Of a stretch of DNA of 64,000 nt, positions 2,761-61,691 are shown one piece after another (the stretch's first letter is position 1; the number at the start of each line of letters is the position of its first letter). The notes beneath the pieces were generated by a model that did not search any database, was not told the DNA's origin, and saw only the letters and a program-made list of their open reading frames with translations. This DNA is from Dehalococcoidia bacterium. GTDB lineage: Bacteria; Chloroflexota; Dehalococcoidia; Lucifugimonadales; Australimonadaceae. Both the position numbers and the translations under genes were made by a program. The stretch lies in assembly GCA_965201135.1 (NCBI GenBank), contig OZ241751.1:86706-150705 (forward strand), read 5' to 3'.

Positions 2761-2779
2761 CTTAAGCAAAGCGCGGCCG

Positions 2780-13040: not shown

Positions 13041-13075
13041 TTTCCCTTTGAGGCGCGGCGAGCGCGCCCCATACA

Positions 13076-13198
13076 GGCGCGCAAGCGCCGAATCCCCCCT
13101 CTCCCTATAAGGGGAGAGGACGCCGCGAACGCGGCGGGAGAGGGTACTGGGAGCGCCTCGCCCACCATGGCCGTCATTCCCGCGTAGGCAGGAATCCC
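13076..13198. repeat. Repeat mosaic R3-R2-R1, left flank of darTG
   Basis: GGCGCGCAAGCGCC lies at 13076..13089. R2 (CCCCTCTCCCTATAAGGGGAGAGGACGCCGCGAACGCGGCGGGAGAGGGTACTG) lies at about 13095..13149. R1 lies at 13173..13198. Confidence 0.85.
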
Positions 13199-13232: not shown

Positions 13233-13874
13233 ATGCCCGTTCCGGCCAACCCGAAGATCTACCACATCGTTCACATAGACCGGCTGCCGTCCATCATCGC
13301 GGACGGCTTCTTGTGGAGCGATGCCGAGGCGACCCGGCGCGGCGCGCCCGGCACGACGATTGGCATGGACAAAATCAAGCGGCGGCGCCTGAACGAATTG
13401 CAGTTGGAGAGCCACGCAGGGTTGCACGTGGGCGAATGCGCCCCGTTCTACTTCTGTCCGCGCTCCGTGATGCTCCACCGAATCCATATGGGGAACGACT
13501 CTGAACTGGCCTACCAAGGCGGGCAGGGCCCAATCGTTCATCTGCAGGCCGACCTTCGCCAAGCCGTTGCTTGGGCGGACTCAAAGGGTCGCCGATGGGC
13601 GTTCACAGCCTCCAGTGCCGCCTCCTATCGCTTTAAGGATTACTGCGATTTGTCTCAATTGGACAAGGTTGACTGGAACGTGGTGGGGGCTCGCTTCTGG
13701 CAAGGCTTCCGCGATGCGAAGCAAGCGGAATTCTTGATGGAGCGTTCCTTCCCGTGGGAACTTGTCGAGTTCATCGGCGTCCTCTCGCCGGAGATCCGTG
13801 ATAGAGTGCGGGCGGCGATGCTAGGAGCGGGACATCAGCCCGTTGCGGCGATAATGCCGGGCTGGTACTACTAA
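13233..13874 (+). CDS. darT: DarT toxin (DUF4433 family; ssDNA thymidine ADP-ribosyltransferase)
   Basis: 213 aa with IYHIVHIDRLPSI, APFYFCPRSVMLH, AKQAEFLMERSFPWELV (catalytic Glu context) and C-terminal PGWYY. SD GAGAGGAG lies upstream. Confidence 0.85.
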   Translation: MPVPANPKIYHIVHIDRLPSIIADGFLWSDAEATRRGAPGTTIGMDKIKRRRLNELQLESHAGLHVGECAPFYFCPRSVMLHRIHMGNDSELAYQGGQGPIVHLQADLRQAVAWADSKGRRWAFTASSAASYRFKDYCDLSQLDKVDWNVVGARFWQGFRDAKQAEFLMERSFPWELVEFIGVLSPEIRDRVRAAMLGAGHQPVAAIMPGWYY

Positions 13875-13889
13875 GGAGAGGCTGCGCCG

Positions 13890-14945
13890 ATGATCGAATA
13901 CAAGACAGGCGACATCACGGGCGAGGACGCCGAGGCGCTCGTCAACACGGTCAACTGCGTCGGCGCGATGGGCAGAGGCGTCGCCTTGAGATTCAAGGAA
14001 GCCTTTCCCGACAACGCGCGGGCGTATGCGCGGGCTTGCGAACGCAAGGAGGTCGAGCCCGGGCGCATGTTCGTCTTCGAGACGAAGTCGCTCGCCAACC
14101 CGCGCTACATCATCAACTTCCCCACCAAACGCCACTGGCGCGGCAAGAGCCGTATGGAGGACATCGAGTCCGGCCTCGCGGCGCTCGCCGAAGAAGCGCG
14201 AAGCCGGGAGATACGCTCCCTCGCCCTTCCGCCGCTCGGCAGCGGGCTCGGCGGACTGGACTGGCGCGAAGTGCGCCCCCGCATCGAGAAAACCCTCGCC
14301 GCGATGGAGGGCGTCAGAGCCGTCGTCTACGAGCCGAACGGACAGGAGCAGCCGTTCGCTCCCAGAGCCCAAGCGCCGGCGATGACGCTAGGCCGCGCCG
14401 CAGTCGTCGCGCTGATCGACCGCTACCTCGCCGGCCTGCTCGATCCGTTCGTGACGCTGCTGGAGATCCACAAACTGATGTACTTTATGCAAGAGGCGGG
14501 CGAGCCGCTGAAACTGAACTTCCAACCGGATCGCTATGGCCCCTACGCCGGCAACCTGCGCCACCTCCTGAAAGCGATTGAAGGCCATCTCACATCGGGC
14601 TACGCCGGCCGCGACGCGCCGGACGAGACCATCGACCTCGTGCCCGGCGCAGTCGCGGACGCCAACGCCTTCCTAGAAGAGCGCCCAGAGACCTGCGTGC
14701 GGTTCGCCCGCGTGAGCGACCTCGTCGACGGCTTTGAGTCGCCGTTGGGCTTGGAACTCCTCGCGACGACGCACTGGGTCGCCTCGCGCTCCGCCCCGAG
14801 GCCCGCGTCGACCGAAGAGATCATTGCCGGCGTCTACGCTTGGGGCGAGCGCAAGCGGCAGTTCTCCGAGAGAGAAATCCGCATCGCCTTGGAGTTTCTC
14901 GAAAAGAAAGGCTGGCTTCCCTCCCCCGCCTCGCCCTCCCCGTGA
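13890..14945 (+). CDS. darG: DarG antitoxin (N-terminal macrodomain + C-terminal DarT-binding domain)
   Basis: 351 aa with GDITGEDAEALVNTVNCVGAMGRGVALRFKEAFP, INFPTKRHWRGKS and LPPLGSGLGGLDW. It lies immediately downstream of darT, with SD AAGGAGAG. Confidence 0.85.
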   Translation: MIEYKTGDITGEDAEALVNTVNCVGAMGRGVALRFKEAFPDNARAYARACERKEVEPGRMFVFETKSLANPRYIINFPTKRHWRGKSRMEDIESGLAALAEEARSREIRSLALPPLGSGLGGLDWREVRPRIEKTLAAMEGVRAVVYEPNGQEQPFAPRAQAPAMTLGRAAVVALIDRYLAGLLDPFVTLLEIHKLMYFMQEAGEPLKLNFQPDRYGPYAGNLRHLLKAIEGHLTSGYAGRDAPDETIDLVPGAVADANAFLEERPETCVRFARVSDLVDGFESPLGLELLATTHWVASRSAPRPASTEEIIAGVYAWGERKRQFSEREIRIALEFLEKKGWLPSPASPSP

Positions 14946-14947: not shown

Positions 14948-15105
14948 GTCATTCCCGCGTAGGCGGGAATCCCGCCCCCATTGAGTCGCCCGCCCAATTG
15001 GAGGCGCGCAAGCGCCCAGATCCCCCTCTCCCTATAAGGGGAGAGGACGCCGCGAACGCGGCGGGAGAGGGTACTGCGGTCGGGGCGCAACGCGCCCCGT
15101 CTCCA
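14948..15105. repeat. Repeat mosaic R1-R3-R2-R4, right flank of darTG
   Basis: R1 at 14948..14973, R3 at 15003..15016, R2 at 15022..15077 and an R4-like hairpin at 15081..15099. Confidence 0.85.
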
Positions 15106-15123
15106 TGTATCCCCCGGGGCCTC

Positions 15124-15273
15124 GTCATTCCCGCGAAAGCGGGAACCTACCCATCCCCCGCCCTCCCCGCCCGCCCCCATGACCGTCATTCCCGCGAAAG
15201 CGGGAACCTACCCATCCCCCGCCCTCCCCGCCCGCCCCCATGACCGTCATTCCCGCGAAAGCGGGAACCTACC
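15124..15273. repeat. Tandem repeat, 61-bp period, about 2.5 copies, each containing an R1 hairpin
   Basis: GACCGTCATTCCCGCGAAAGCGGGAACCTACCCATCCCCCGCCCTCCCCGCCCGCCCCCAT repeats, with R1 units at 15124, 15185 and 15246. Confidence 0.85.
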
Positions 15274-15348
15274 CCCAAGCGCCGCGCCCGCCGATAGCGT
15301 AGAATCTCCCCCGCGCCCCAGCCGCGCGAGGTTGCAGGGCGCAAGGCG

Positions 15349-15587: not shown

Positions 15588-18500
15588 GTGAGATTCACGA
15601 AGATTCCGCTCATAGCGACACTGCTGGCAGGGGCGCTCTCGCTGCTCTTCCTGTTGCCCGCGTTCGGCCAAACCTCCGGCGAGATCGAACGAACGGAAGG
15701 CAGGGTGACCTCAGGCGACCTCCAAGTCGGCGTCTACGAGAACCTCGCGGACGCCAAGGTGGCGAAACTGGTGGAGGACACCTATCCCCCCTCCGCCAGC
15801 AAGGGCGACGCTGGCAGCAGAACGTTCTACCGCCCCCCCACCACAGCCACTGAGGCCACGGGAGGGCTTTCGGGCGTCAACGTCGGCAGTGAGATTGTCT
15901 CAGGTCTGGTCGCCGGCGCGATGAGGACCGCGGACCCCGCTTACGGGATCAGCCCGTACACCGCCACGCGCAACACCTTCTTCGACTCGTCGCTCTACAT
16001 CGGCGGCGGGAAGACCGGCAGTTACAACACGGCGCTCATCACGCTCCGCACCGACCTGGTCGCCGACGCTTGCGACGCCGGCACGGACGACCCCGATACT
16101 GCAGTAGACGAGTCCACGCTTCCCGATGCCGCCGCGGACTACCCGGTCGCCAAGGTCACCAACCCCAGCCGCGGCTACGACATTGACGTTCCGCTGGCTC
16201 CCGCCGCCTTCCCGGAGGACTCCACCCCGTTTATTTCAGGCCAGACCGGATACGGAACCTCGCCCACCGAGACCTACGTTCAGGCGTTCTTCAATGTCGT
16301 GGACGACACGGACGACTCCTTGTCCCGCGCGGACAAGATGGTGGACGGCCCCAACTGCTTCTACTACGCGAGGGCGAACGGGAGCATGGAGTTCGGCCAG
16401 ATCGGGGCGCGCCACGGCGACCGCCTGACTGTCCGCATCACCGGCCAGGCCAGCAACATCAGCCTCATCGTCGACGCCGAAGGCCCCGAGATCAACCTGA
16501 TTAGCCCGGTCGACACGAGCGTCGTCAAGTCGAGCAACCTCTCCTTCCGCTTCGACGTCCGCGACCCCGACTCCGGCCTCCGCCACGACGGCGAGTACAC
16601 GCTGAGCAACGACGGCGACCCCACCTCCGTCAACCCCGACCGCGACGCCAACCGCGGCTCCGAGCCCCGCTCCGAGTCGGCGCCTAGCCTCTTCGGCGTC
16701 GGCAACGGCAAAGCCGCCGACATCCAAGCCGTCTACTGGAGCATCGAGAACACCCAAACCTCCGACGTCAGCGACCGCCTCACCGACTCCGTCCGCGACA
16801 CCCAAGCGGGCGGCATCGACATCACCGACCAGGGCAGGTGGGCCATCATCGGCGGTCGCGCCGGAGTCGGCTACTCCTTCTCGGCGACGGGCAACAACTT
16901 CGACTCCGCCAAGAACGCGCTGCAGTTCACCGCGACGGACCGCGTCGGGAATATGACCACCTCGGACGCGGACCTGGAGCGGACCGGGAACCAGCCCTAC
17001 ATCTTCGAAGTGGACGACAATAAGCCCACCATCGAAAACATCGACGTTCGCACGGGCATCTCCTACGACAACTCCGACAGCGAGGAGGAGGTGAACCGCT
17101 CCGCCATCGCCCTCAAGTTCAGCGAGCCGATCAAGTCCGGCGACATCGCGGTCAGCCGCATCACGGTCGCGGGCAACAGCGTCACGGGCGTCATTCAGCC
17201 TAACGGCGCGCCGATCGTCTACCGCGCGCAGTCGGGCGACGCGGATCCCGCCGACTGCACGCTCGACGAGCGCGTGTCGCAAGACCACGACGACAATCCT
17301 GACACCCCCAACGTCATGGTCGCCAACCCGAACAAGTGCCCCGGCACGGACATTCAGGACGAGAAGATCGCCGACACGCGCAGCCTCGTGTTCCTGCAGT
17401 TGGAGGACGCCCTCGAGGCGGACGAGGATCCTGCGGTGACGCTGCTTTCCGGCGCCGTCCAAGACCTCGCCGGCAACTCCGTGAACACCACCTCGCTGGA
17501 GTCGGAAGACTGGATCGCGCCCACGCTCACGGTCTCCGTGACCGGAACCAAGGGCGACCGCCCGGTCGCCAACGATGACGGCGCGTTCGTGATCGCAGTG
17601 ACTTCGGACGAAGACCTGAGCGGGCGCCCCCGCGTGGTGTTCGCGGAGATCAGGGCGACGGCCAACGCCGCCGATGCCGACAACCCATACTCGTACTCCG
17701 TCGGGCCCGACATCTCCAACGAAAGAGACTGCAACCTCACGCCAGATGAGACCGACCGCTCTTGGAGCCGCTCCTGCGGAGTGGGCGAGCAGATCGTGGA
17801 CGGCATAACCGGAATGGTCGGCGTGTTCGTTTTGGCGAAGGACGAGGACGACAACCTCGCCGTCGTGCCCACGCGGTGGACCCCCCAAGGCGATCCGCCC
17901 CCGAACACCCCCGGCCACCGCGCGGCGGGCTCGCCGCCGAAGCCGATTGATGGCAACGCGGTTGACGTCCAGGAACTCCAGGACGCCGGCCTGCTGATAG
18001 AGATCGACAACATCTTCAACTCGGACGGCGAAGACGCGCCCGCGCAGCAAGACCCGACCGAGAGCGTCACGCCGCAGAGCGGCGACGACGCGAAGAAGAC
18101 GGAGAGCCCCAACCCGTTCATCCACATCGACTTCGAGGGCGAGGCGTCCGAATACGACCGAGGGGACTTCAAGGACTCCCACGGCACGGTGACGATCACC
18201 GAGATCAAGTTGGGCGACGACGACGCGACGGACCGCCTGAGCCGCGTGGACAGGGACGAGTTCTCCATAGTGCTCCGCGACCTCGCGGTCGGCAAGTACA
18301 CGCTGACCTACAAGGCCGAGGACGACGCGGGGAACGAGTACAACAACGGCGAGTTCAAGTTCGAGGTGCTCGCGCGCAAGCCCTACAAGGTGAACGTCAA
18401 GCCGGGCTGGAACCTGATCTCGCTGCCGGGCGCTCCCGAAAACTCCGGCATCGCGGACGTGCTCTCCAGCACAGAATTCCTCACCCCCGTGCTCGCCTAC

Positions 18501-18965
18501 CAGAACGGCGACTGGCTGACGGCCCGCCGAACGGACGACGGCTGGGACGGAAGCCTGACGGACATCGAGGCCGGCTACGGCTACTGGGTGCACGCCCAGA
18601 CCTTCGAGACGATCTCGACGCTCCTGACGGAGATCGACCCGGCGTCCGTCCCGCCGACGGTGCCGGTCACCCGAGGCTGGAACCTGCTCGGCGTCATAGA
18701 CGTCGACCAAAGCAGCGCCGGCAGTGCGCCCGGAACCGGCGACAACGCCGACGAAGCCGACAACTACTTCGGCAGCATCCCGTGGAAGGTCGCCTACTCC
18801 TACAACACGCAGATGAGCACCTGGCAGCGGTACACCCCGAAGACGGAGATCGGCTGCGTGACGTCCGGCACAGGCGAGGACGCGGTGGAGACCTGCGCCG
18901 CGGAAATCCTGAACGGCCAGGGCTACTGGGTCTGGTCCGAGCGGCCCAGCACGCTCGTCCCGTAA
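15588..18965 (+). CDS. Giant secreted acidic surface protein, paralog 3
   Basis: Same RBS and GTG start. Signal peptide MRFTKIPLIATLLAGALSLLFLLPAFGQ. Motifs RDPDSGLRHDGEY, ATDRVGNMT, VQDLAGNSVN and AEDDAGNEY. The C-terminal domain is PGWNLISLPG .. AGYGYWVHA .. GWNLLGVID .. NGQGYWVW..PSTLVP. Confidence 0.8.
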   Translation: MRFTKIPLIATLLAGALSLLFLLPAFGQTSGEIERTEGRVTSGDLQVGVYENLADAKVAKLVEDTYPPSASKGDAGSRTFYRPPTTATEATGGLSGVNVGSEIVSGLVAGAMRTADPAYGISPYTATRNTFFDSSLYIGGGKTGSYNTALITLRTDLVADACDAGTDDPDTAVDESTLPDAAADYPVAKVTNPSRGYDIDVPLAPAAFPEDSTPFISGQTGYGTSPTETYVQAFFNVVDDTDDSLSRADKMVDGPNCFYYARANGSMEFGQIGARHGDRLTVRITGQASNISLIVDAEGPEINLISPVDTSVVKSSNLSFRFDVRDPDSGLRHDGEYTLSNDGDPTSVNPDRDANRGSEPRSESAPSLFGVGNGKAADIQAVYWSIENTQTSDVSDRLTDSVRDTQAGGIDITDQGRWAIIGGRAGVGYSFSATGNNFDSAKNALQFTATDRVGNMTTSDADLERTGNQPYIFEVDDNKPTIENIDVRTGISYDNSDSEEEVNRSAIALKFSEPIKSGDIAVSRITVAGNSVTGVIQPNGAPIVYRAQSGDADPADCTLDERVSQDHDDNPDTPNVMVANPNKCPGTDIQDEKIADTRSLVFLQLEDALEADEDPAVTLLSGAVQDLAGNSVNTTSLESEDWIAPTLTVSVTGTKGDRPVANDDGAFVIAVTSDEDLSGRPRVVFAEIRATANAADADNPYSYSVGPDISNERDCNLTPDETDRSWSRSCGVGEQIVDGITGMVGVFVLAKDEDDNLAVVPTRWTPQGDPPPNTPGHRAAGSPPKPIDGNAVDVQELQDAGLLIEIDNIFNSDGEDAPAQQDPTESVTPQSGDDAKKTESPNPFIHIDFEGEASEYDRGDFKDSHGTVTITEIKLGDDDATDRLSRVDRDEFSIVLRDLAVGKYTLTYKAEDDAGNEYNNGEFKFEVLARKPYKVNVKPGWNLISLPGAPENSGIADVLSSTEFLTPVLAYQNGDWLTARRTDDGWDGSLTDIEAGYGYWVHAQTFETISTLLTEIDPASVPPTVPVTRGWNLLGVIDVDQSSAGSAPGTGDNADEADNYFGSIPWKVAYSYNTQMSTWQRYTPKTEIGCVTSGTGEDAVETCAAEILNGQGYWVWSERPSTLVP

Positions 18966-19023: not shown

Positions 19024-19091
19024 TTTCTCTTCGCCCCCCGCGCGGCGCTTGCGCCCCTCGCCACAAGCGCCCGCGCCCGCGGGCGTCGGAT

Positions 19092-19312
19092 CCCCCTCTC
19101 CCTATAAGGGGAGAGGACGCCGCGAATGCGGCGGGAGAGGGTACTGGCGGACGGGCGCTCGCGGCGCTTGCGCGCCTCAATGGGGCGAGATTCCCGCCTA
19201 CGCGGGAATGACGATTAGGGGAGGAATGGAGATCAGCGAGCGCCGCGAGCTCCGGACCCCCTCTCCCTACAAGGGGAGAGGACGCCGCGAATGCGGCGGG
19301 AGAGGGTACTGC
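19092..19312. repeat. Repeat mosaic (R2, R1 reverse, R2)
   Basis: R2 copies at about 19092..19146 and 19257..19312. R1 (GAGATTCCCGCCTACGCGGGAATGACG) at 19187..19213. Confidence 0.8.
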
Positions 19313-29664: not shown

Positions 29665-30696
29665 TCACCGATCGTAGGCCGGAACGGTGTCGATCCACAG
29701 CCCCCCGGTTTCCGCGATGTAGGCGATCTTCTTTACGTCGGCTATGTCCATGCCGTAAGGGATTGCCCTGTAGATTGCGAACTGCTCCCTGTCGGAGTCG
29801 CTGACGTCGCGGCGGTTGTAACTGCTGTAGCGCGCCATCAGGCTCGGCCCCGTCACGTGCCCCATCGCCGTCAGCGCGTGCACCAGTTCGTGCGTGATCG
29901 TCGCGTTCAGGTTGCTGCTTTGCCCCGCCACGACGATGCGCGCGACCGCGAACTTGTGCCGGTAGCGCCACCACTCCGCGTACCCCAGCCGGTCGCTGCC
30001 TAAGAGGTCGTCGTCTCTGAACTCCACGAGGATGGCGTTGTCGCCGAGAACCTCGTTGTAGTTGTCGCGATCGGCCTTGCTCATATCGCTCGCGTCGATC
30101 ACGTTGAACTCGTAGCCAAGCAATTCGCCCAACTGCTCCAGCGCGTTGTCCAGCCTGTTCCTGAAGCCCACCTCCGTGTAGAAGTGAACGTCAATCGTCC
30201 CGGGCCATTTCAGCACGACGTCGAAACGCCAACCGCACGCGCCGTCCGACCCGTCCTCCGGCCTGTCGAAGAAGCAGTTCCACGCCTTCTTCGTCGCGTA
30301 GATCGGCATCGGCGTCGGGGTAGGCGACGGCGTAGGCGTGAAGGTTGGCGTCGCCGTCGGCGTCGGCGTGAGCGTAGGAGTCGGCGACGGCGTAGGCGTA
30401 ATCGTAGGCGTCGCCGTCGGGGTAGGCGTGAGCGTTGGGGTCGGCGACGGCGTGGGCGTGAGCGTTGGCGTCGGGGTAAGCGTCGGCGTGGAGGTGGGAG
30501 TCGCCGTCGGCGTAGGCGTGGGGATTGGCGACGGCGTCGGGGTAAGCGTCGGGGTCGGCGTGAGCGTGAGCGTTGGGGACGGCGCAGGCGCGATCGTGGC
30601 GGTCGGGGGCGGCGTCGGCGTGGGAGCGCTTTGGCAGGCCGCGAGCGCGGCGGCGAGGGAGAGAACGCAGGCGGGAAGGAGGGCGGCGCGGCGCAT
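29665..30696 (-). CDS. Lipoprotein with a long Pro/Thr-rich linker and a C-terminal HExxH putative zinc-metallopeptidase domain
   Basis: Signal + lipobox [21 protein letters not shown]. About 110 aa of PTPT/PSPT repeats, then [14 protein letters not shown]. Confidence 0.6.
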
Positions 30697-34258: not shown

Positions 34259-34807
34259 TTAGGTATTGTCGTTGTTCGCGCCGCCGCTTGCGGGGTCCGG
34301 GGCGCCGCCGGAGACGACGACCTGGGCGGCGCGCAGCACGCGGTCGGCGCCGCTGTAGCCCGGGCTGACGGTTTCGAGGACGGCGCCCGCCGGATGCTCC
34401 GCGCTGGGGCGGGACGCGACGGCCTCCTGCCGCGCCGGATCGAACGGGTCGCCGGGCGCGGGCTCGTAGGGCGTCACGCCTTCCGACTCCAGCAGCGCGA
34501 GCGCGTTCTGCCGGATGAGGCGGGCGCCGGCGGCCCACTCGCCGGGCGCGTCCGGCGGGAGGGCGTCCACGGCGCGGCGGAGGTCGTCCACGATGGGCAG
34601 CAGTTTGGCGATGACGACGCGGGAGGCGCTGCGCGCCAGCGCCCATCGCTCCTCCTCCGTTCTGCGCTTGTAGTTCACGAGGTCGGCTTGGGCGCGCTGA
34701 GCGACCGCTTTCATCTCGTCGCGCTCGCGCTCCGCTCGGGCCAGGGGGTCTTCAGGGGCCGCGCCGCCGTCCTCGCCGTGCTGGGTCTGCTCTTCTTGCG
34801 TAGTCAT
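34259..34807 (-). CDS. grpE: Nucleotide exchange factor GrpE
   Basis: 182 aa with [18 protein letters not shown] and [11 protein letters not shown]. It lies immediately upstream of dnaK. Confidence 0.9.
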
Positions 34808-35346
34808 TCGCTTCGCCCGTCGTCCCCCGCGCCGGGCCGCTTGACCGCGCCCGCTCCGAGGAACATCTCGATAATGTCTTGCATCGCCTGCTCGAAGGGG
34901 AGCGCGCCGCGCTGGGGCGAGGAGCGCCGGGCGGGGGCGCGGGCGGCCTCCGCCGCCTCCGCGAGCCGGTCGAACACGGCCATCGCCATCTCCACGCCCG
35001 CGAGGTTCAGGCGGGCGTTGTCCACGAGGTGCTTGATCATCCGCAGTTTGGCGATGTCGCGCTCCGAGTAGAGGCGGAGCATTCCGATGGTTCGCGTGGG
35101 ACGGATGAGTCCGGCGCGCTCGTACTTGCGGAGCGTTTGGGGGTGCATCCGCAGGATGCGGGCGGCGACGCTGATGATGTAGAGGCCCTCTTCCGGCGCA
35201 TCCGCGGCTTCGGGGCGCGGCGCGGCGCCGGGGGGCGCTTGAGGCGTCCGCCTCGCCGGGGGAGCGGCGCGCTCTCCTTCGCCGAAGGTTACGCGAAAGA
35301 CGGGCGCGACGCGCTCCGCGCTCGTAGGTCTGCGTCTCTCCTGCAT
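34804..35346 (-). CDS. hspR: MerR-family heat-shock repressor HspR
   Basis: LYIISVAARILRMHPQTLRKYERAGLIRPTRTIGMLRLYSERDIAKLRMIKHL. Its stop overlaps the grpE start (ATGA). The ATG at 35346 is preferred, because the longer ORF to 35412 runs through a degenerate R1 repeat. Confidence 0.8.
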   Translation of the reverse strand: MQERRRPTSAERVAPVFRVTFGEGERAAPPARRTPQAPPGAAPRPEAADAPEEGLYIISVAARILRMHPQTLRKYERAGLIRPTRTIGMLRLYSERDIAKLRMIKHLVDNARLNLAGVEMAMAVFDRLAEAAEAARAPARRSSPQRGALPFEQAMQDIIEMFLGAGAVKRPGAGDDGRSE

Positions 35347-35469
35347 TGCCGTCCTCTCGGAATCGGAGCGTCCGAGGCGCCCTTGCGCCGTCCGCCGGAT
35401 TCCCGCCCGCACGGGAACGACGATTCTAGGCCGCGCGAGGGCTCTTCGTGAATTCGCGGGACAACTCGT

Positions 35470-35929: not shown

Positions 35930-36145
35930 GCGACATCCGCCCCTTGCGCCGTCCGCCCCGCCTCCTCTACGCTGGCTCTATGACCCCGCGCTCGAACCCA
36001 ACGACGGACGGACGCCCCCTGACGGCGGGTGGCACCATTTGGCCCCATTTCCGCTCCAAACGCCCCCATTTCCGCCCCAAAACGGCCCCAAACAGGCCCT
36101 CCAGCGGACCCGGCGCTAGGAGTAAATGGTGCCAAATGGAGCCAC
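35930..36145 (+). repeat. R5 repeat family (about 220 bp), copy B
   Basis: Starts GCGACATCCGCCCCTTGCGCCGTCCGCC. The inner element is bounded by 22-nt inverted arms: GTGGCACCATTTGGCCCCATTT (36029..36050) and AAATGGTGCCAAATGGAGCCAC (36124..36145). Confidence 0.7.
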
Positions 36146-36280
36146 AATTAAGGCAGAGTGTCCCCCTTGCCCCGCTCCCCCCCCAGCCCCACGCCGCCCC
36201 TTGCGCCGCCCGCCCATACTCCGTACACTAGGGCGCGGCCCGACAAGACCGGCGCTTGGCGCGCCAGGAGTTGCAATCCG

Positions 36281-36481
36281 ATGAACGCCCGATCTCTGCT
36301 GACGATGGCCGCCATCTGGCTGTTCCTCGTCGTCGTCCCCTACCTGCTCGGCCCGGTTTGGCTCGGCGGAAGCCTCGACGGCAGTTTCGTCGTCGCCTAT
36401 ATGATCTGGTTCGTCATCGCCGCCACGCTCACCGCCGCGGCCTACGCGATGCACGTTAGGGAGTCGCAACGCCGCGAGTAG
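36281..36481 (+). CDS. Small membrane protein (66 aa, two predicted TM helices)
   Basis: ATG 10 nt after AGGAG. MNARSLLTMAAIWLFLVVVPYLLGPVWLGG..FVVAYMIWFVIAATLTAAAYAM. The track ORF from 36158 runs through repeat R5. Confidence 0.5.
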   Translation: MNARSLLTMAAIWLFLVVVPYLLGPVWLGGSLDGSFVVAYMIWFVIAATLTAAAYAMHVRESQRRE

Positions 36482-36612
36482 CGAGCGCGCCCGGCGCAGG
36501 GGCAAGCGGCGCGAGTAGCGAGCGCGCCCGGCGCAGGGGCAAGCGGCGCGAGTAGCGAGCGCGCCCGGCGCATAGGCAAGCAGCGCGAGCCGCGTCCGGC
36601 GCATAGGAAGGG
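36475..36612. repeat. Tandem repeat, 37-bp period, about 3.7 copies
   Basis: GCGAGTAGCGAGCGCGCCCGGCGCAGGGGCAAGCGGC starts at 36475, 36512 and 36549, with a partial copy at 36586. Confidence 0.85.
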
Positions 36613-37907: not shown

Positions 37908-37913
37908 GAAATC

Positions 37914-38140
37914 GTCATTCCCGCGTAGGCGGGAATCTCGTATCCACCTCTCTCCAGAGAGGCCGTCGCATAATCTACCGTCATTCCGGCGTAGGCCGGA
38001 ATCCAGAGGCGCGCAAGCGCCGTATTCACCTCTCCCTATAAGGGGAGAGGACGCCGCGTAAGCGGCGGGAGAGGGTACTGGGAACGGCAGCCGAGAGGTT
38101 GCGCAAGGTCTCCCATCGGAGGCAGTTGCATAACCTGCAG
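37914..38140. repeat. Repeat mosaic (R1, CCTCTC/GAGAGG hairpin, R1 variant, R3, R2, degenerate IS5-TIR-like pieces, R1)
   Basis: R1 at 37914..37938, R1 variant + R3 + R2 at 37980..38080, GTTGCGCAAGGTCTCC and GCAGTTGCATAACC at about 38098..38135, then an R1 beginning at 38139. Confidence 0.8.
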
Positions 38141-38237
38141 TCATTCCCGCGTAGGCGGGAACCTCGCCCCCATCGGACGGGGGCGCGTCGCGCCCCGTCC
38201 CCACTACTCCCATCGCCTCCCGCGCGACGCGCCCCGG

Positions 38238-38266
38238 TTGACGGCGCGGCGCCTAATGGTTAGCCT
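38238..38266 (+). promoter_or_regulatory. Possible promoter of brnTA (would give a near-leaderless mRNA)
   Basis: TTGACG-17 nt-TAGCCT ends 6 nt before the brnT ATG at 38273. No SD was seen. Confidence 0.3.
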
Positions 38267-38272
38267 AGCCCT

Positions 38273-38533
38273 ATGCCTTACGAGTGGGACGAGGCCAAGC
38301 GGCGCGGCAACATCGCCAAGCACGGCATAGACTTCTCTGCGATCGAGCGCTTCCAATGGAGCGCCGCGCTCATCGAGCCGGACGACCGGCATAGCGAACC
38401 GCGATTCCGCGCGTTCGGCTACATAGAACTCCGTTTGCACACGGTCGTGTACACTGAACGCATGGGGAACACCCGGATCATCAGCATCCGCAAATCCAAC
38501 GCGAAGGAGATGGAACGCTATGCCGCCCCTTAA
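38273..38533 (+). CDS. brnT: BrnT-family (DUF497) type II toxin
   Basis: 86 aa with YEWDEAKRRGNIAKHGIDF..DDRHSEPRFRAFG..RLHTVVYTER..RIISIRKSNAKE. Confidence 0.8.
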   Translation: MPYEWDEAKRRGNIAKHGIDFSAIERFQWSAALIEPDDRHSEPRFRAFGYIELRLHTVVYTERMGNTRIISIRKSNAKEMERYAAP

Positions 38534-38825
38534 GCCCGGAACGATATGGCCTACGCCTGAGGAAGACGCGGCGATCAACGCAGGCATCGCCCTCGACCCC
38601 GACAACCCGGAGTTGACGGAGGAGGATTTCGCTCGGATGCGCCCCGCGATGGAGTTCGCGCACGCGCGGCGGCTGGAGGCGGAGCGCCTGGCGCGGGAGG
38701 CCGCCGGCAAGACGCGCGTGACGATCCGCCTTGACTCCGATGTCGTGTCCCGCCTGCGCGAGGACGGCCCCGGCTGGCAGGCGCGGGCGAACTCGGCGCT
38801 CCGGCAGGCCGTGCTCGGGGCGTGA
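38520..38825 (+). CDS. brnA: BrnA-family antitoxin
   Basis: 101 aa; overlaps brnT by 14 nt, with SD GAAGGAGA. The C-terminal KTRVTIRLDSDVVSRLREDGPGWQARANSALRQAV is typical of BrnA. Confidence 0.75.
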   Translation: MPPLKPGTIWPTPEEDAAINAGIALDPDNPELTEEDFARMRPAMEFAHARRLEAERLAREAAGKTRVTIRLDSDVVSRLREDGPGWQARANSALRQAVLGA

Positions 38826-38832
38826 TGCCTTC

Positions 38833-38945
38833 GTCATTCCCGCCTACGCGGGAATCTTGCCCCCACCTCTCCCTATAAGCGGAGAGGTCGCCGGCGAAGC
38901 CGGCGTGCGCGGGTACTGCGGACGGCAGCCGAGAGGTTGCGGCAA
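38833..38945. repeat. Repeat mosaic (R1, R2 variant, CGGCAGCCGAGAGGTTGCG module)
   Basis: GTCATTCCCGCCTACGCGGGAATC at 38833..38856 and an R2 variant at 38866..38918. The trailing module is shared with 38085..38105. Confidence 0.75.
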
Positions 38946-38977
38946 GGTAAGATAGAAGCGAACGAAAGGAGTAGACA

Positions 38978-40267
38978 GTGCCGGAGAACGAACTGGGCAG
39001 GCCGATGCCGGAATTGGGGAAGATCGAGCAGGTGGACATGCGCCTCATCTGGCCTCACGAGGCGCACGACTTCACGCCGTGGCTCGCGAACCGCCTGGAC
39101 TTGCTCGGCGACTCGCTTGGGATGGAGTTGGAAATTGTGCAGAGAGAGGCGGACATCGGCGGCTTCTCTCTCGACATTCTCGCGCAGAAGCGCGACACGG
39201 GTGAACTGGTCGCGATAGAGAATCAGTTGGAGTGGGCTGACCACCCCCACTTGGGGAAGCTCTTGACCTACGCGGCCGCCCTCGACGCTCGCGTCGTGAT
39301 ATGGGTGGCATCCTCATTCAGAGGCGAGCACCGCGCGACCATAGACTGGCTCAATGACTGGACGCCTGAAGAAATCAACTTCTACGGCGTGGAGGTGAGC
39401 GCAATCAGGATTGGCGAGTCGCTGCCCGCCCCCGTTTTTCGTCCGGTGGCGTTCCCCAACGATTGGTCGAAACAAAAAGTGGTTAGCGCGGATTCCCGGT
39501 ACAACGAGGGCCGGATTCGGTTCTACCAGCCTCTCGTTGACGCCTTGATAAAGCAAGGATTCCAAATGCAGCGAGAGGCGCATCCCTGGGTTAACAAAGT
39601 GCGGACAGCGTTCAACGGATTGTACTACTATCCTCACATCCCGAAGTCGCCAAAGTTATGGGGATCCGATTGGATGTGGGAAGTGTCGGTGAAACTCGCC
39701 ATTGACACCACTAGTAGGGAGCGTAACGTTCGAATTTTTAACGCGCTCAAACAAGAGCAAAACCAGATTCACAAAGAGTGCTACCCGGAGCCCGGAGTGG
39801 TCAAATGGGATGAGGGGAGGCACCGATCATGCACGGTGGAAGCAGGGGGGCTACACGTTAATGTATCTGATAACCTGCGTCGGCGCATGTCAATAGATGA
39901 GACGCTGGAACATTCGCCGAGGATCCGTGAGGCTATGCTAGCGGGCCTGCTGCGATTCATCGCTATCCTCACCCCCCGACTGGAGCGAATCATGGGCGAA
40001 TTGCAAGACGAGGAAGCGGAGCCTGATGCGTACCCCCGGCCTGCTGAAGCGGATGCCCGAAATCATCGAGCATCTGCAGCGGAAGGAGACCTAATGAGCC
40101 TGTCCGCTTACTGCGTAAAGTGCCGGGAGAAGCGGGACATGGCGAACGCGCGTGACGAGACGACCAAGAACGGCAAGCCCATCATCAAGGGCGCGTGCGC
40201 GATTTGCGGAACCGGCATAAACATCATCGGCAAGACGATGGCCAACATGAAGGAGAGCCATGAGTAA
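38978..40267 (+). CDS. NucS/PD-(D/E)XK-like nuclease-fold protein (DUF4268-like) with an in-frame C-terminal zinc ribbon (DUF5679-like)
   Basis: GTG 7 nt after AAAGGAG. The N-terminal WPHEAHDFTPWL..FSLDILAQKRDTGELVAIENQLEWADHPHLGKLLTYAA..VIWVA..EHRATIDWLN matches my recollection of this family. The C-terminal CVKCREKRDM..NGKPIIKGACAICGTGINIIGK is a CxxC..CxxC ribbon. Confidence 0.6.
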   Translation: MPENELGRPMPELGKIEQVDMRLIWPHEAHDFTPWLANRLDLLGDSLGMELEIVQREADIGGFSLDILAQKRDTGELVAIENQLEWADHPHLGKLLTYAAALDARVVIWVASSFRGEHRATIDWLNDWTPEEINFYGVEVSAIRIGESLPAPVFRPVAFPNDWSKQKVVSADSRYNEGRIRFYQPLVDALIKQGFQMQREAHPWVNKVRTAFNGLYYYPHIPKSPKLWGSDWMWEVSVKLAIDTTSRERNVRIFNALKQEQNQIHKECYPEPGVVKWDEGRHRSCTVEAGGLHVNVSDNLRRRMSIDETLEHSPRIREAMLAGLLRFIAILTPRLERIMGELQDEEAEPDAYPRPAEADARNHRASAAEGDLMSLSAYCVKCREKRDMANARDETTKNGKPIIKGACAICGTGINIIGKTMANMKESHE

Positions 40268-40925
40268 GTCCGATGGCCCGCAGCCCCGCGAGCATCCCTA
40301 CATCTGGGTCACGTGGATGCCGCGCCTCCTCTCCGGCAATCACCATTGCGAGTGGGCGTCGTGGTTCAAGACGCGGCACGACGGCAAGACGTGGCGGCGC
40401 GCCGTCCGCGATTTCGAGCCGACGTTGTGGGCGCTCAATCACAAAGCCCTCCTGCGGGAGGAGCGGAAGCGGCTGGAGGCGGACGGCGCGACCGTGAAGG
40501 TCGAGCGGCAAAACCAGTTCCGCTTGCGCGGCTGGAGCGCCGCGCTGGCCGGAATGCCCGACCTCGTGTCGCTCAAGGACGGGCAAGCGGTTATCCACGA
40601 CCTCAAGTCCGGCGAGCCCCACGAATACCACGCCATTCAGGTGATGCTCTATATGTGGGCGTTCCCGCTCGCGCGGCGCGAGTACGGCGGCCTGCCGCTT
40701 TCGGGGCGCGTCGTCTACCCCGACCACGCGGTGGACGTGCCGGGGTCGGCGATAGACCAGGCGTTCGTCGAGAGGGCGGTTGACCTGATCAAAACGCTCG
40801 CGGGCGAGGAGCCGCCGCCCCGGACGCCGAGCGCGTCCGAATGCTCCTTCTGCGACATCACCGCCGACGACTGCCCTGAGCGCGTAGAGGACGCGCCCGC
40901 CGAAGAGGAGACGGATCTGTTCTAG
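40260..40925 (+). CDS. Cas4/RecB-like PD-(D/E)XK nuclease with a 4-Cys (Fe-S) signature
   Basis: 221 aa; overlaps the upstream gene by 8 nt. It has PDLV..(10 aa)..HDLKSGE (D..DxK), QVMLY (QxxxY), one N-terminal Cys (HHCEW) and a C-terminal CSFCDITADDC. Confidence 0.65.
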   Translation: MSKSDGPQPREHPYIWVTWMPRLLSGNHHCEWASWFKTRHDGKTWRRAVRDFEPTLWALNHKALLREERKRLEADGATVKVERQNQFRLRGWSAALAGMPDLVSLKDGQAVIHDLKSGEPHEYHAIQVMLYMWAFPLARREYGGLPLSGRVVYPDHAVDVPGSAIDQAFVERAVDLIKTLAGEEPPPRTPSASECSFCDITADDCPERVEDAPAEEETDLF

Positions 40926-42248: not shown

Positions 42249-43743
42249 TCACGGCGTTTCGTAAGTACGAACGCCCGCGCCGTTCCTGTTCATGGTCACG
42301 ATGCCATCCCATCCATCATAGAAAGCAATCCGCGAACTATCCGGCGACCAGGCGGCTCTCATATATGAGAAATCCGCCTTAAGGGGCAATTCTAGGCGCC
42401 GCAGGCCGCTTCCATCCGGCCGAATGACACGGGCGGCGTCAGCAATGAACAGGATCTCTTCGCCGTCGGGCGACCATGTCACCTGAGAGATTGGCCTCGC
42501 GCTGTCGCCTTCCCATATCACCCGATCATTCGTTCCGTCTCGGCTGATTAAATGAACGCTCACGCTATCGTAGTCGCTGCTTCCGAATGCAAGGTCGCGG
42601 CCATCAGGCGACCACGACGGCCCGCCGAAAGTAATGGAATTGAGCCTAGTTTTACGTGGGACTCCGGAAGTCTCATAAGAGGTCGCGGATGCAATTTGCA
42701 AGGGTTCGATTTTATCAATTCCCGTGAGAAACACGCCTATTTCAACAACCTCTCCATAACCGGCGTCAGAATCGACGTTTATCGCATTGATAAACGCGAA
42801 TTCTTCGCTATTGGGCGACCAGGCAACCGGATAGAGCAATGCGCCGCGGCTCGAGGTTCTCAACTCGCCTTTCGCATTCGCCACGTTGATAACGACGCTG
42901 TTAGATGCGAAATTCCAAAGGCTTCCCCCTCTAACGCCAAGCCAAGAAAGGAATACGATATGCTTTCCGTCGCGTGACCACACAGGGAAAAAGTCATACG
43001 ATGCGTTGTCCGTCAGCCTTATTCGATTCGAGCGTAGTCCAATCGACTATCGCAATTTCCGGATCATGGTTTGACCTATAATTCGTCACGAATTCGCATG
43101 AAGTGTACGCAATAAGCGGTTCGGAAGGAGAGGGATCCAAATGCAAAGAGAATCTCCAACGATAAGGGCTTGCATTGATAATTGTCTCAACGATTTCCGT
43201 ATCCAACGAGAGTTTGCCTATCGAATCCGAAGCATTCCAGCCGATGCGGTTTTGTTGATAATCGAATACTAAATAGTCTCCTACTTCCGTGGTGATCCAA
43301 TGAACGAAACGCTCGGGATGAGGGAATCCTGGAGGTATAAGAGGGTGAAACCAACAGGCGGTAGGCTCTCCGTCGGGCACAGGGGTTTCCGGGGGCGGCG
43401 GCGGCCACGGAGTGGGCCATTGGGCAGGCGCGAGCGTTGCCGTGGGCCTAGGCGAGGCGGCAAAAGTGGGCGCTGGAGTGAGCGTAGGCGTGAACGTAGG
43501 CGTGAACGTAGGGGTTGGAGTAGGGGTAGGAATGGGCGTGAAAGTGGGCGTTGGGGTGAGCGTAGGCGTGAACGTAGGGGTTGGCGTAGGCATAGGGCTG
43601 GGCGTGAAAGCGGGGGTTGGGGTGAGGATAGGCGCAGGAGCAACAGTGGGCGTGGGCGCGGGCGACGCGCACGCGACCGCCGCAAGCGCCAAGAGCGCCC
43701 CCGTCGCCAAAACGCGCAGCCGCAAGACGATGATTGCGCTCAT
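42249..43743 (-). pseudogene. TolB-like beta-propeller lipoprotein with PT-rich linker, interrupted by a frameshift (or assembly error)
   Basis: ORF 42994..43743 (signal MSAIIVLRLRVLATGALLALAAVAC plus a PTPT linker) stops at 42994. The PD40 repeats (PVWSRDGKHIVF, WSPNSEEFAF, WSPDGRDLAF, WSPDGEEILF, WSPDSSRIAF) continue in another frame. That frame is open from about 43045. Confidence 0.6.
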
Positions 43744-44993: not shown

Positions 44994-45074
44994 AGCGCAA
45001 GCGTATGCGGCGCGGCGGGGCAAGTCAAGCGCGACGGCGAGAGGGAGACGGGGCGCCATTGCGCCCTCGTCTGC

Positions 45075-45388
45075 AGCACCCTCTCCCGCCGCATTCGCGG
45101 CGTCCTCTCCCCTTCTAGGGAGAGGCGGAATGGGCGCTTGCGCGCCGCAGGGGGCGGGATTCCCGCCTACGCGGGAATGACGGTTGAGGGCAGGCGGCAA
45201 GGGGGTAGGTTCCCGCTTTCGCGGGAATGACGTGGCGCCTGGGGAACAAGGGAGACAGGACGCGACGCGCCCCGTCTATGGCGCTGTCGCGCCGAATGGA
45301 TTCCTGCCTACGCAGGAATGACGGTTGAGGGGCGCGTTGCGCCCGACCGCAGTACCCTCTCCCGCCGCGTTCGCGGCGTCCTCTCCGG
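45075..45388. repeat. Repeat mosaic (R2 reverse, R3, three R1 reverse, R4, truncated R2 reverse)
   Basis: R2 at 45075..45127. R1 copies at 45155..45182, 45204..45231 and 45296..45323. R4 at about 45251..45280, and truncated R2 at 45349..45388. Confidence 0.8.
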
Positions 45389-47093: not shown

Positions 47094-47167
47094 GGCGGCG
47101 CGTAAGCGCCACATCCCCCTCTCCCTATAAGGGGAGAGGACGCCGCGAAGCGGCGGGTGAGGGTACT
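47094..47167. repeat. R3-like + R2 repeat
   Basis: GGCGGCGCGTAAGCGCC, then CCCCCTCTCCCTATAAGGGGAGAGGACGCCGCGAAGCGGCGGGTGAGGGTACTG. Confidence 0.8.
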
Positions 47168-47221
47168 GGAGACAGGAGCAGAGTGGCGCTGCGGACAATC
47201 AACTTGGCGGAAGCCTAGCCG

Positions 47222-57772: not shown

Positions 57773-58014
57773 TGCGCCCTCCGTTCGCGGGCAATCTTCT
57801 CCCATCGGAGGGCGGAGCGCAAGGGCGTGTACTCGTTCGGGGCGTCGCGCAAGCCCCGAATCAGCCTACGGGCATTGCCCGCAAGGTAGTCGTAAGGGCT
57901 CGCGAGCGCTCCAAGCGCCGCCGCGCCCTCTTGCCCTTCCTGCCGGGGGCGAGTTCTTCGCCGAACGTCAAGAGCGCTTGCGCGTTGGCGCAGTGATAGG
58001 ATTTCCACTATCCG

Positions 58015-58254
58015 CAGTACCCTCTCCCGCCGCGTTCGCGGCGTCCTCTCCCCTTGTAGGAGACCTTTGCATAACTCAGTTCTAGCCCGCAATTCCTCTT
58101 GGTGTTAGGAGTGAATTGGGGCGCCCCGGCCCTGCGGCAGGGGGTTATGCAAAGGACTCTGTAGGGAGAGGGGACGCGGGATTCCCGCCTACGCGGGAAT
58201 CCCGGTAGGAGGGGCGCTGGCGCGCCTCTGGATTCCGGCCTACGCCGGAATGAC
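58015..58254. repeat. Repeat mosaic (R2 reverse split by MITE-1, R1 reverse, R3, R1 variant reverse)
   Basis: The R2 reverse halves lie at 58015..58059 and 58160..58170. R1 copies lie at 58178..58202 and 58229..58254. Confidence 0.8.
58060..58159. mobile_element. MITE-1 (100 bp) with IS5-element TIRs
   Basis: GAGACCTTTGCATAAC .. GTTATGCAAAGGACTC. The flanking 5-bp direct repeat is TGTAG (58055..58059 and 58160..58164). No ORF. Confidence 0.85.
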
Positions 58255-60176: not shown

Positions 60177-60283
60177 GCCGTCCGTCCCTCCTACGGAGCC
60201 TTGCGCCGTCTATTGTACTCTTCCGGCGAGCGGCGGGCGGGGCGGACAGAGCGAGCGGACGGCGCGCGCCTTTAACTTTAAAA

Positions 60284-60508
60284 GTGGCACCATTTGGCAC
60301 TATTTGGCACCATTTACTCCTACGCCCCGGCGGGCGATGGGGCCAGATTGAGGCGTTTTGGGGACGAAACAAGGCCGGCATGAGGCCGAAATGGGGCCAA
60401 ATGGAGCCACCACGTCAGGGGGCATCCAATCCGCCGCCGGGTTCAAGCGCTGGGTCATAAGGACAGCGTAGGGGAGAGGCGGCGGACGGCGCAAGGGGTG
60501 TTTGTCGC
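60284..60508 (-). repeat. R5 repeat family (about 220 bp), copy C (inverted relative to A and B)
   Basis: The arms are GTGGCACCATTTGGCACTATTTGGCACCATTT (60284..60315) and AAATGGGGCCAAATGGAGCCAC (60389..60410). ATTTACTCCTACGCC is the reverse of GGCG.TAGGAGTAAAT. The far end, GGGGTGTTTGTCGC, is the reverse of GCGACAAACACCCC. Confidence 0.7.
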
Positions 60509-60519
60509 GGTTGGGGTAG

Positions 60520-60792
60520 GGTAGGTTCCCGCTTTCGCGGGAATGGCGTGGCCCGGGGGTTATGGGGAGACGGGGCTAATGCCCCGTCTGTGGCGCTTGC
60601 GCGCCGAATGGATTTCTGCCTACGGAGACCTTTGCATAACTTCCTGCCGCAGGGCCGGGGCACCCCAATTCACTCCTAACAGCAGGAGGAATTGCAGGCT
60701 GGAACTGAGTTATGCAAAGGTCTCCTACGCAGGAATGACGGCACAGTGGGCGCTACGCGATGGGGGTAGGTTCCTGCCTACGCGGGAATGAC
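60520..60792. repeat. Repeat mosaic (R1 reverse, R4, R1 split by MITE-2, R1 reverse)
   Basis: R1 at 60520..60547 and R4 at about 60565..60590. The split R1 lies at 60610..60624 plus 60725..60741. A further R1 lies at 60764..60792. Confidence 0.8.
60625..60724. mobile_element. MITE-2 (100 bp), inverted relative to MITE-1
   Basis: GAGACCTTTGCATAAC .. GTTATGCAAAGGTCTC. The flanking direct repeat is CTACG (60620..60624 and 60725..60729). The interior is the reverse complement of the MITE-1 interior with a few substitutions. Confidence 0.85.
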
Positions 60793-60850
60793 GGTGAGGG
60801 GCGCAAAGGTCTTATGCAGGCGTTGGCGGTTGCGTTATGTCGCAAGGCGG

Positions 60851-61645: not shown

Positions 61646-61691
61646 AGGCGTAGTCTACTCTGTCGGGGGCGCGACGTGGGGGGATAGGGGC

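Follow-up and report, generated by a model that had tools for sequence, protein, structure and literature searches.

The window analyzed here, a 64-kb stretch of contig OZ241751.1 from a Dehalococcoidia bacterium, contains three copies of R5, a non-coding repeat of approximately 220 bp. R5 belongs to a family of modular intergenic repeats that is undescribed so far and occurs in a lineage of GC-rich Dehalococcoidia, yet the family is of a familiar kind. A promoter-like head is linked to a downstream array of 10-nt units, the number of units is labile and the elements are patchily distributed among relatives. We tentatively regard R5, with somewhat less than even confidence, as a lineage-specific, modular, non-coding interspersed repeat of the BOX/Correia/MITE (miniature inverted-repeat transposable element) kind, which may be selfish or neutral and is probably transcribed.

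Copies and anatomy of R5

The copies were compared by direct reading and by alignment of the three sites: A 2533-2767 (+), B 35930-36153 (+) and C 60270-60509 (-). A preliminary description, made from the letters of the window, had reported three copies, and all of them were found where it had placed them, copy C lying on the minus strand. As described there, each copy opens with GCGACA..CCCCTTGCGCCG (A at 2533, B at 35930, C at 60508 on the minus strand). The repeat is real and chance is excluded. The box TAGGAGTAAATG / TAGGAGTAAATGNNNCNAAAT occurs exactly three times in the window versus 0 expected from 100 shuffles, the double unit GGCNCCATTTGGCNCCATTT is confined to B and C within the window and is present on both strands, and arrays of the AAAT type with a period of 10 were detected in the window at the R5 sites only (Tandem Repeats Finder, with which a regular-expression census agrees). 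Identity between A, B and C is low (72-81%). Read on the element strand, R5 comprises a head box, approximately 45 nt, a left arm, a core, the TAGGAGTAAATG box, a right arm and a tail:

Copy A
2533-2578 (+): head, GCGACA and promoter-like box with TTGCGC (2547-2552), 19-nt spacer and TACGAT
2633-2654 (+): left arm, a degenerate unit followed by TGCATCATTT
2721-2767 (+): TAGGAGTAAATG box, right arm (AAATGAGTCA AAATGATGCA AAATGATGCA) and tail CCCTTAAGC

Copy B
35930-35973 (+): head, GCGACA and promoter-like box with TTGCGC (35944-35949), 18-nt spacer and TACGCT (35968-35973)
36016-36024 (+): CCCCCTGACG box directly 5' of the left arm, shared with copy C; CACTCCTGACG in cores of the relatives L102/L106
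36029-36050 (+): left arm with two 10-nt units, GTGGCACCATT TGGCCCCATTT
36051-36116 (+): core; CCCCAAA(A)C motifs, internal period of 21 nt, A/T tracts recurring about every 11 nt
36117-36128 (+): invariant box TAGGAGTAAATG, Shine-Dalgarno (SD)-like plus ATG, overlapping the first right-arm unit
36124-36145 (+): right arm AAATGGTGCC AAATGGAGCC AC, complementary to the left arm at 20 of 22 positions
36146-36153 (+): tail AATTAAGG; compare GAATTAAAAGTT in L102

Copy C
60465-60509 (-): head, GCGACA and promoter-like box with TTGCGC (60494-60489) and TACGCT (60470-60465)
60389-60422 (-): CCCCCTGACG box (60422-60413) and left arm GTGGCTCCATTTGGCCCCATTT (60410-60389)
60270-60322 (-): TAGGAGTAAATG box (60322-60311), three-unit right arm (60315-60284) and tail CTTTTAAAGTTAAAG (60284-60270)

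Outside the repeat
36201-36229 (+): native promoter of the operon formed by a small open reading frame (ORF) and a Rieske gene, TTGCGC-N17-TACACT, reference for the head box

In all three copies the head follows the scheme GCGACA...CCCCTTGCGCC-N-CTACGCTG, i.e. TTGCGC, 18 nt (19 in A) and TACGCT or TACGAT. The approximately 45 nt between head and left arm close with CCCCCTGACG in B and C only. The cores are C/A-rich and G-poor and harbor CCCCAAA(A)C motifs. Similarity among the copies stops at the tails (TTAAGG / TTAAAGTT / TTAAGC) while the alignment showed that it reaches approximately 100 bp to the left of the left arm, taking in the promoter-like box and a CCTGACG box. The inner segments bounded by the arms span 120-128 bp (B 36029-36145, C 60284-60410, A 2633-2758), which agrees with the length given previously. 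With respect to the head they are oriented alike in A, B and C, and head and tail ends are not inverted repeats of each other.

The conserved inner box indeed reads as SD plus ATG, as had been proposed, and direct reading of the three copies confirmed that the short ORFs following it are not conserved. According to direct reading and the ORF lists, the reading frames of B and C diverge from the left arm onwards. Since a 10-nt unit cannot keep a reading frame, the array is non-coding. Protein coding, be it by a leaderless ORF starting at ATGACC or by an ORF starting at the ATG of the box, was rejected because the frames differ between B and C and even between the relative loci L007 and L047, which are 96% identical. 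The 52-codon ORF from the box ATG of copy B (36126-36284) stops at a TGA that overlaps (ATGA) with the start codon of the conserved small ORF preceding the Rieske gene. This overlap is probably due to chance, its likelihood in the absence of earlier stops being about 1 in 3.

Inverted arms and turnover of the units

The match of 20 of 22 arm positions reported for copy B was borne out and consists of Watson-Crick pairs. Arm complementarity amounts to 19/22 in C and 18/22 in A while no more than 16/22 was reached in 200 shuffles of a 300-nt segment, hence the similarity of the arms (18-20/22) exceeds the noise, and helically spaced 10-nt units in inverted arms are a genuine feature of the repeat family. 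Other details had to be modified. Two to three units per arm were indeed found in C (two left, three right) but the left arm of A is composed of one clean unit and a degenerate one. The variant of copy A, TGCATCATTT / AAATGATGCA, is present on both arms as stated; it does not, however, consist of two units on each side, as the right arm possesses three, the innermost of which contains GAGTCA.

Relative to B and C, three arm pairs of copy A are compensatory (RNAalifold). In no pair of units of B and C are the central bases (GGCNCC) complementary (A.A, C.T, T.T, C.T), and the mismatches of the arms are not G-U wobbles. The co-variation of the arms is best explained by array turnover, with units that duplicate, vanish and become homogenized within a copy. 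Matched changes on both arms would arise because the arrays turn over by units and are homogenized within the copy. Since three different arm variants, one of them from relatives (see below), all pair, some pressure may keep the two arrays complementary.

Related modules in other Dehalococcoidia

A scan of a genome collection with TAGGAGTAAATGNNNCNAAAT yielded about 75 chance matches in AT-rich genomes and five real ones, which are located at three loci of two Dehalococcoidia metagenome-assembled genomes (MAGs). A viral scan and a metagenome scan with a tighter pattern gave chance matches only. The two MAGs, CBDFLP01 and CBDHDB01, also carry the REP family of the window. The protein collection contains no exact match to the Rieske protein next to copy B; its closest relatives (76-85% identical) belong to Chloroflexi/Dehalococcoidia assemblies.

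In the MAGs, the arrays contain two to four copies of the unit GGCACGAAAT followed by a T-run, whereas the left arm is absent. A second element of the orthologous loci L001/L077 possesses inverted arms TGTCGGATT(x4/x2) ... AATCCGACA(x2) around AGGAGTAAAT and is the third arm variant. The MAG copies reside at orthologous sites in two species. Between the orthologues L001/L077 and L007/L047 (89% and 96% identical), whole units (10 or 21 nt) were gained or lost inside the arrays. Likewise, a strain variant was found to have four units instead of three. The intergenic identity of the MAG orthologues ranges from 87% (gapped global alignment) to 89% (BLAST) compared to 89% at third-codon positions and, because these values are equal, the MAG elements appear to drift almost neutrally.

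Decamer-array modules abound in the contig L102, an 85% relative, and in its strain variant L106. The modules start with a purine-rich SD-like unit (GATAGG, GAGAGG or TAGGAGT), continue with (AAATGnnnnn)n, in which the variable part is GCAACC, GGAACG, GAGACC, GAGCGG or GAGCC, and close with GAATTAAAAGTT, often trailed by ..CACTCCTGACGAGG. Three R5-like cores (L102 6045-6231, L102 15989-15794, L106 6045-5820) show CCTGACG ... TAGGAGTAA(A) plus units, and in them the stretch after CCTGACG repeats the array directly, not inverted. One core lies together with an IS110 element in a 1.39-kb segment by which L102 and L106 differ. L104 shows the same grammar with TACGAGTAAAT. Thus, an SD-like box followed by (AAATGnnnnn)n and TTAAAAGTT is present in L102, L104, L106 and the two MAGs, with differing unit sequences, whereas no decamer-array modules were detected in L103 and L107-L110 (stretches of 4-21 kb per locus). 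Judging from these comparisons, the conserved features of the family are the head, the SD-like box, the array and the tail, the inverted left arm being a lineage-specific addition.

An inverted decamer array of the same architecture was seen in an unrelated phylum. In a Saprospiraceae MAG (JAEUUS010000466.1, locus L055), a palindrome of about 250 bp (~1020-1270, minus strand) centred on TAGGAGTAAATGACC contains approximately 12 + 10 copies of the 10-nt unit GGGGTCATTT / AAATGACCCC.

The head box as a putative promoter

Two features were overlooked in the preliminary description: the head is promoter-like and of the type of a conserved gene promoter, and the right arm, the SD-like box and the tail form a stand-alone module in relatives. 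In the window, L102 and L103 alike, the small-ORF/Rieske operon is preceded by TTGCGC-N17-TACA[CG]T at orthologous positions. These genomes are approximately 80% identical, and the intergenic DNA around this promoter is otherwise unalignable. The R5 head is of the same type, GCCCCTTGCGCCG.CCGCCC being common to both. Heads of the relatives read TTACGC-N18-TACATT (L102), TTGCCC-N17-TACACT (L104) and TTGCGC-N17-TACCCT (L001). Across R5 and the related elements, both hexamers and a distance of 17-19 nt between them are kept while the spacer sequence diverges. Moreover, all of the ten head boxes in the window, L001, L102 and L104 have a decamer array on the same strand within 100-380 nt. On sequence grounds, the R5 head is probably a sigma70-like promoter, and we infer that it is active and that R5 is transcribed. 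A sigma54 promoter (TGGCAC-N5-TTGC) was rejected on direct reading since the spacing is one or two bases off.

If R5 is a promoter-bearing interspersed repeat, as we favor, the propagated unit would begin with the head box (GCGACA..TTGCGC-N17-19-TACnnT), end with the tail (TTAAG/TTAAAAGTT) and would not be the arm-bounded segment. The sigma70-type head promoter would fire into the element and give rise to a transcript of approximately 180-220 nt or to a 5' leader reading through into the next gene. In the transcript, the two inverted decamer arrays would close a long imperfect hairpin around the C-rich core. The arms may be regarded as micro-satellite-like (AAATGnnnnn)n arrays growing and shrinking by whole units and homogenized within a copy. 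Hairpin formation and the mode of spread are likewise what we infer.

Several observations weigh against this interpretation. Only 6 of the 12 positions of the head box agree with the E. coli consensus, and a standard E. coli-style scan makes no call; the spacer of copy A is 19 nt long. A T-run follows the array only in C and in the MAG copies, and the fold z-scores of A (-0.4) and C (-0.3) are unremarkable. As the copies are only 72-81% alike, there is no sign of recent mobility in the window. Finally, the invariant TAGGAGTAAATG box, which is kept between genomes with unalignable flanks, does not seem to be explained by a purely neutral element.

The last point leads to another reading, to which we assign a low probability: the module composed of the SD-like box, (AAATGnnnnn)n and TTAAAAGTT might, together with its own promoter, be a new functional device, either a ribosome- or protein-titrating transcript or a copy-number-tunable switch. 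One possibility is a titrating element whose AUGs, spaced by 10 nt, would cover all three frames, another is a switch in which gains and losses of units between strains and species would reset the expression of neighboring genes. The opposite assumption, that R5 is a functionless relic, i.e. a set of old segmental duplicates in which slippage-prone decamers have expanded and which are inactive as DNA and RNA, would account for the low identity of the copies, the near-neutral MAG orthologues and the labile number of units. It is hardly probable, given that the window and MAGs with unalignable flanks have TAGGAGTAAATGG..C.AAAT in identical form, that head and array are linked in ten of ten cases across four genomes and that the arms stay complementary in three sequence variants.

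Evidence for and against an RNA function

The preliminary description had listed a structured RNA among its readings. Support for it was found in copy B, whose transcript folds better than shuffles (z = -3.2). By contrast, the values of C (-0.3) and A (-0.4), an alifold covariation term of +0.78 and the direct or missing arms of the relatives render this reading weak. A specific version of it is a family of trans-acting small RNAs (sRNAs) in which a promoter would drive an RNA of approximately 190 nt with a long closing hairpin and a C-rich core pairing with G-rich ribosome-binding sites or titrating an RNA-binding protein. Such a family would be in line with the promoter-like head that faces the hairpin in every copy, with the CCCCAAAAC-type motifs retained in all three cores though the remaining core diverges, with the T-run after the hairpin in C and, besides the fold of B, with the three compensatory arm pairs of copy A and the third arm variant TGTCGGATT/AATCCGACA in L001/L077. 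We nevertheless consider it rather unlikely. The covariation term stems from only three sequences, the z-scores of C and A are those given above, the arm mismatches are not wobbles, relatives retain box and array without the hairpin, the MAG orthologues evolve near-neutrally and there is no match in Rfam. At gathering thresholds, a scan of the window and of L001/L003/L007 detected tRNAs only, and a scan of copy B with E <= 10 revealed only noise, situated on the neighboring REP hairpin. With E <= 1, L102 gave an sX15-like match beside IS110 and nothing on the arrays. This sub-threshold match to the Xanthomonas sRNA sX15 (45 bits, E = 9e-5) is located at L102 14587-14744 (-) in the 5' untranslated region of the IS110-family transposase gene.

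A hammerhead ribozyme, hinted at by CUGACGAG, was rejected. The core CUGANGA...GAAA is not kept, B and C have CUGACGG and CUGACGU, L102 lacks GAAA after stem II, and Rfam gave no match.

Is R5 a mobile element?

The non-autonomous transposon with arm-terminal binding sites that was proposed initially does not fit as stated, because approximately 100 bp are conserved beyond the left arm and neither a target-site duplication nor a partner was found. Direct reading revealed no target-site duplication at the arm boundaries or at the head/tail boundaries of A, B and C. An autonomous partner with R5 arms was not found in the window or in the fetched relative loci, a search covering approximately 200 kb of the lineage. 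Within the window, R5 arms were not found outside the three copies, and the IS3, IS5 and IS110 genes of the window and the relatives are devoid of them. Nor was a recombinase gene found beside the R5 copies in the window. The statement that R5 cannot be placed in a known family held insofar as no Rfam match and, in a BLAST search of copy B, no match to plasmids and phages was obtained; an interspersed-repeat family of its own is proposed instead.

A number of known element types could be dismissed. R5 is not a classical DDE-derived MITE since it lacks terminal inverted repeats, target-site duplications and, in the same 200 kb, a partner. It also differs from REP/BIME/REPIN elements, in which short GC-rich palindromic units mobilized by a RAYT form the hairpin as doublets, because the R5 units are not palindromic and a separate REP family, GTCATTCCCGCG.AGGCGGGAA, flanks every R5 copy. 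An integrase attP site or an invertible promoter switch (inverton) was rejected as the three copies show one orientation only and no recombinase gene is adjacent, and an integron attC site as the R' box is absent. IS110 was discarded as partner: the L102/L104 copies share their ends (CCTTGTATCTTG ... ACAGTTGCT) and, by direct reading, appear within a different REP-type hairpin, not within arrays. In L102/L106, an apparently empty site CTCCTGAC|AGTCGTACC versus a filled one, CTCCTGAC|GAGGCC..., suggested a clean insertion, but past the element the sequence does not return to the downstream flank.

Terminal inverted repeats and target duplications are both absent from members of the IS607 family, termini and target being GG (PMC6188088). 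At their ends, short direct motifs phased by one helical turn lie 20-60 bp from the end, accompanied by imperfect inverted repeats at variable distance (PMC6188088). R5 resembles these elements in that it lacks target duplications and terminal inverted repeats and contains helically phased direct motifs near both ends in opposite orientation, each arm being built from two to three directly adjoining 10-bp units. In B and C, GG closes the tail 8-15 bp past the last unit of the right arm, while the left terminus cannot be placed. It is therefore conceivable that R5 is an IS607-like non-autonomous transposon in which the decamer arrays serve a recombinase filament as subterminal binding sites in helical phase, in the way the serine transposase TnpA of the IS607 family employs the motifs at its ends. 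The unit variants would then correspond to different cognate enzymes unless the enzyme reads the constant AAATG alone. The free, non-complementary central base of the units suits protein reading over pairing. Yet this explanation, too, is unlikely. Neither TnpA/TnpB genes nor a serine recombinase gene or any other gene flanked by such arrays was found in the window and the fetched relative loci. Unlike the IS607 motifs, the contiguous 10-mers vary by copy, with at least eight unit sequences within a few tens of kb. Furthermore, the arrays of L102 are direct, the MAG copies have a single array without left arm and reside at orthologous sites in two species, and conservation extends far past the left arm. 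A cognate serine transposase would combine a MerR-like helix-turn-helix with a resolvase domain. The sole MerR-type protein of the window (34804-35412, minus strand) contains no resolvase domain, adjoins dnaK and looks like HspR.

Genomic setting of the R5 copies

The window has a G+C content of 58-72% and is full of other repeats. Just upstream of all three R5 copies there is a REP unit, CGCGAAAGCGGGAACCTACC, of another family. The neighboring genes are:

Copy A: upstream a molybdopterin-enzyme gene, downstream ThiS/aminotransferase
Copy B: upstream a small CxxC gene, downstream the small ORF/Rieske oxygenase operon
Copy C: upstream a hypothetical ORF (60788-61687, plus strand) without Pfam match, downstream an M20 peptidase

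At the locus of copy A, the genes are approximately 1.45 kb apart and enclose an IS3 fragment, a 40-nt REP array, copy A and more REPs. Because only 5 nt precede ThiS at the same genes of L103, copy A is situated within inserted DNA.

All three copies are oriented towards the next gene, and copy B ends 48 bp ahead of the -35 hexamer of the Rieske promoter. In addition, A/T tracts are phased at approximately 11 nt across the whole arm-plus-core segment of about 120 bp, i.e. beyond the arms alone. The power of this periodicity is 3.3-3.6 in B and C compared to a window-wide 99th percentile of 1.6 (periods 10-10.5). These properties might indicate that R5 is cis-regulatory DNA of the host, the phased A/T tracts and decamer arrays forming a curved or protein-wrapped segment before the promoter of the next gene. 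The binder could be a winged-helix, ribbon-helix-helix, OmpR-type or nucleoid protein. On the other hand, the downstream genes are unrelated, L102 and L103 have orthologous Rieske promoters without the element, the L102 clusters face 3' ends of genes and the unit sequences vary from copy to copy. A regulatory role of this kind is thus very doubtful.

Comparison with known intergenic repeats

Pneumococcal BOX elements are modular intergenic repeats with a variable number of tandem subunits (45 nt), whose outer modules can pair as a long stem-loop and which are transcribed with their neighbors. To our knowledge, no transposase of BOX elements has been found. R5 is similarly modular, has a variable number of internal units and a possible hairpin, and no transposase was found for it in the loci searched. 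It is unlike BOX in its 10-nt subunits, its own promoter-like head, the SD-like box and the Chloroflexota host. The Correia elements of Neisseria are approximately 100-150 bp long, have inverted arms of about 25 bp, a bendable centre and promoter elements, form an RNA hairpin upon transcription and lie among REP-like repeats. Inverted arms, a promoter-like element, a possible hairpin and nearby REP-like repeats are also typical of R5. R5, though, is devoid of both the true terminal inverted repeats and the TA target duplication of Correia elements, and its conserved sequence continues past the arms. We know of no sequence that R5 has in common with BOX or Correia elements. By analogy, however, R5 may work most like one of them.

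Putative mobile promoters, i.e. near-identical promoter-bearing segments upstream of unrelated genes in one genome, differ from R5 in that R5 has approximately 170 bp of structured sequence past the promoter box and that other promoters and REPs intervene before the genes. Short-unit intergenic arrays of variable number are also represented by the TAACTGA arrays of Beggiatoaceae and cyanobacteria, for which a post-transcriptional role has been proposed (PMC4679880). Compared to these arrays, R5 has a 10-nt unit with a copy-specific variable part and inverted arms and is tied to SD-like and promoter-like boxes.

If our interpretation is correct, uncultured GC-rich Dehalococcoidia would own a family of modular, promoter-bearing intergenic repeats which shape operon boundaries and create strain-level indels. 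Elements of the R5 type may be mistaken for genes or sRNAs in the annotation of MAGs, and the decamer arrays could serve as markers similar to variable-number tandem repeats for strain typing in this lineage. The puzzle is the invariant SD-like box beside labile, AAATG-punctuated decamers that are tied to a promoter-like box.

Other repeats and genes of the window

The REP-like family GTCATTCCCGCG(AAA/TAG)GCGGGAA(CCTACC/TC) occurs at 2232-2528, 15123-15274 and approximately 30 further sites as well as in the Dehalococcoidia MAG loci L001, L003 and L077. It is partly arranged in tandem, with a 40-nt period (x7.7) and a 61-nt period (x2.5). A second palindromic repeat, CCCCTCTCCCTATAAGGGGAGAGGACGCCGCGAACGCGGCGGGAGAGGGTACTG, was found at 5798-5872, 13075-13149, 15002-15076, 19072-19146, 19237-19311, 38006-38080 and 47095-47169, with inverted copies at 45074-45151 and 58011-58075. 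In L102, IS110 appears to sit inside a CCCTCTGGGAGAGGG-type hairpin related to this family.

Fragments of IS3-family transposases with rve domains form an inverted repeat of 543 nt that is 92% complementary and whose halves (1689-2231 and 62654-63196) lie close to the two ends of the window. Copies A and C, which are oppositely oriented, are found just within this repeat. The window also contains a DDE transposase gene of the IS5 type (DDE_Tnp_1, DUF772) at 4629-5663.

A 37-nt tandem repeat (36466-36589; x3.4, 94% matches) separates the small ORF from the Rieske gene within their operon. Since the orthologous spacer of L102 has only approximately 38 nt, the repeat represents an insertion within the operon, reminiscent of MIRU. 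The adjacent region between the Rieske and PD-(D/E)XK genes (37912-40270) is approximately 2.4 kb long versus 10-117 nt in L102 and L103 and contains REPs together with an ORF of 429 aa that matches DUF5679 and, weakly, DUF4268.

A gene pair encoding DarT (ssDNA thymidine ADP-ribosyltransferase) and a macro-domain (DarG-like) protein is located at 13233-14945 with REP clusters on its flanks. Three large paralogous ORFs (6502-9900, 10039-12945 and 15588-18965; 1132, 968 and 1125 aa), the first of which has no Pfam match, have an upstream repeat of about 109 nt (6476, 10013, 15562) in common, and their C-terminal ends are conserved. From 6228 to 6439, a 43-nt unit is repeated in tandem (x4.9). 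Finally, long imperfect repeats with periods of 6, 12, 18 and 30 nt (GGCGTCGGCGTAGGCGTGAGC...) at 30261-30652 and 43383-43634 are probably coding repeats inside large ORFs.

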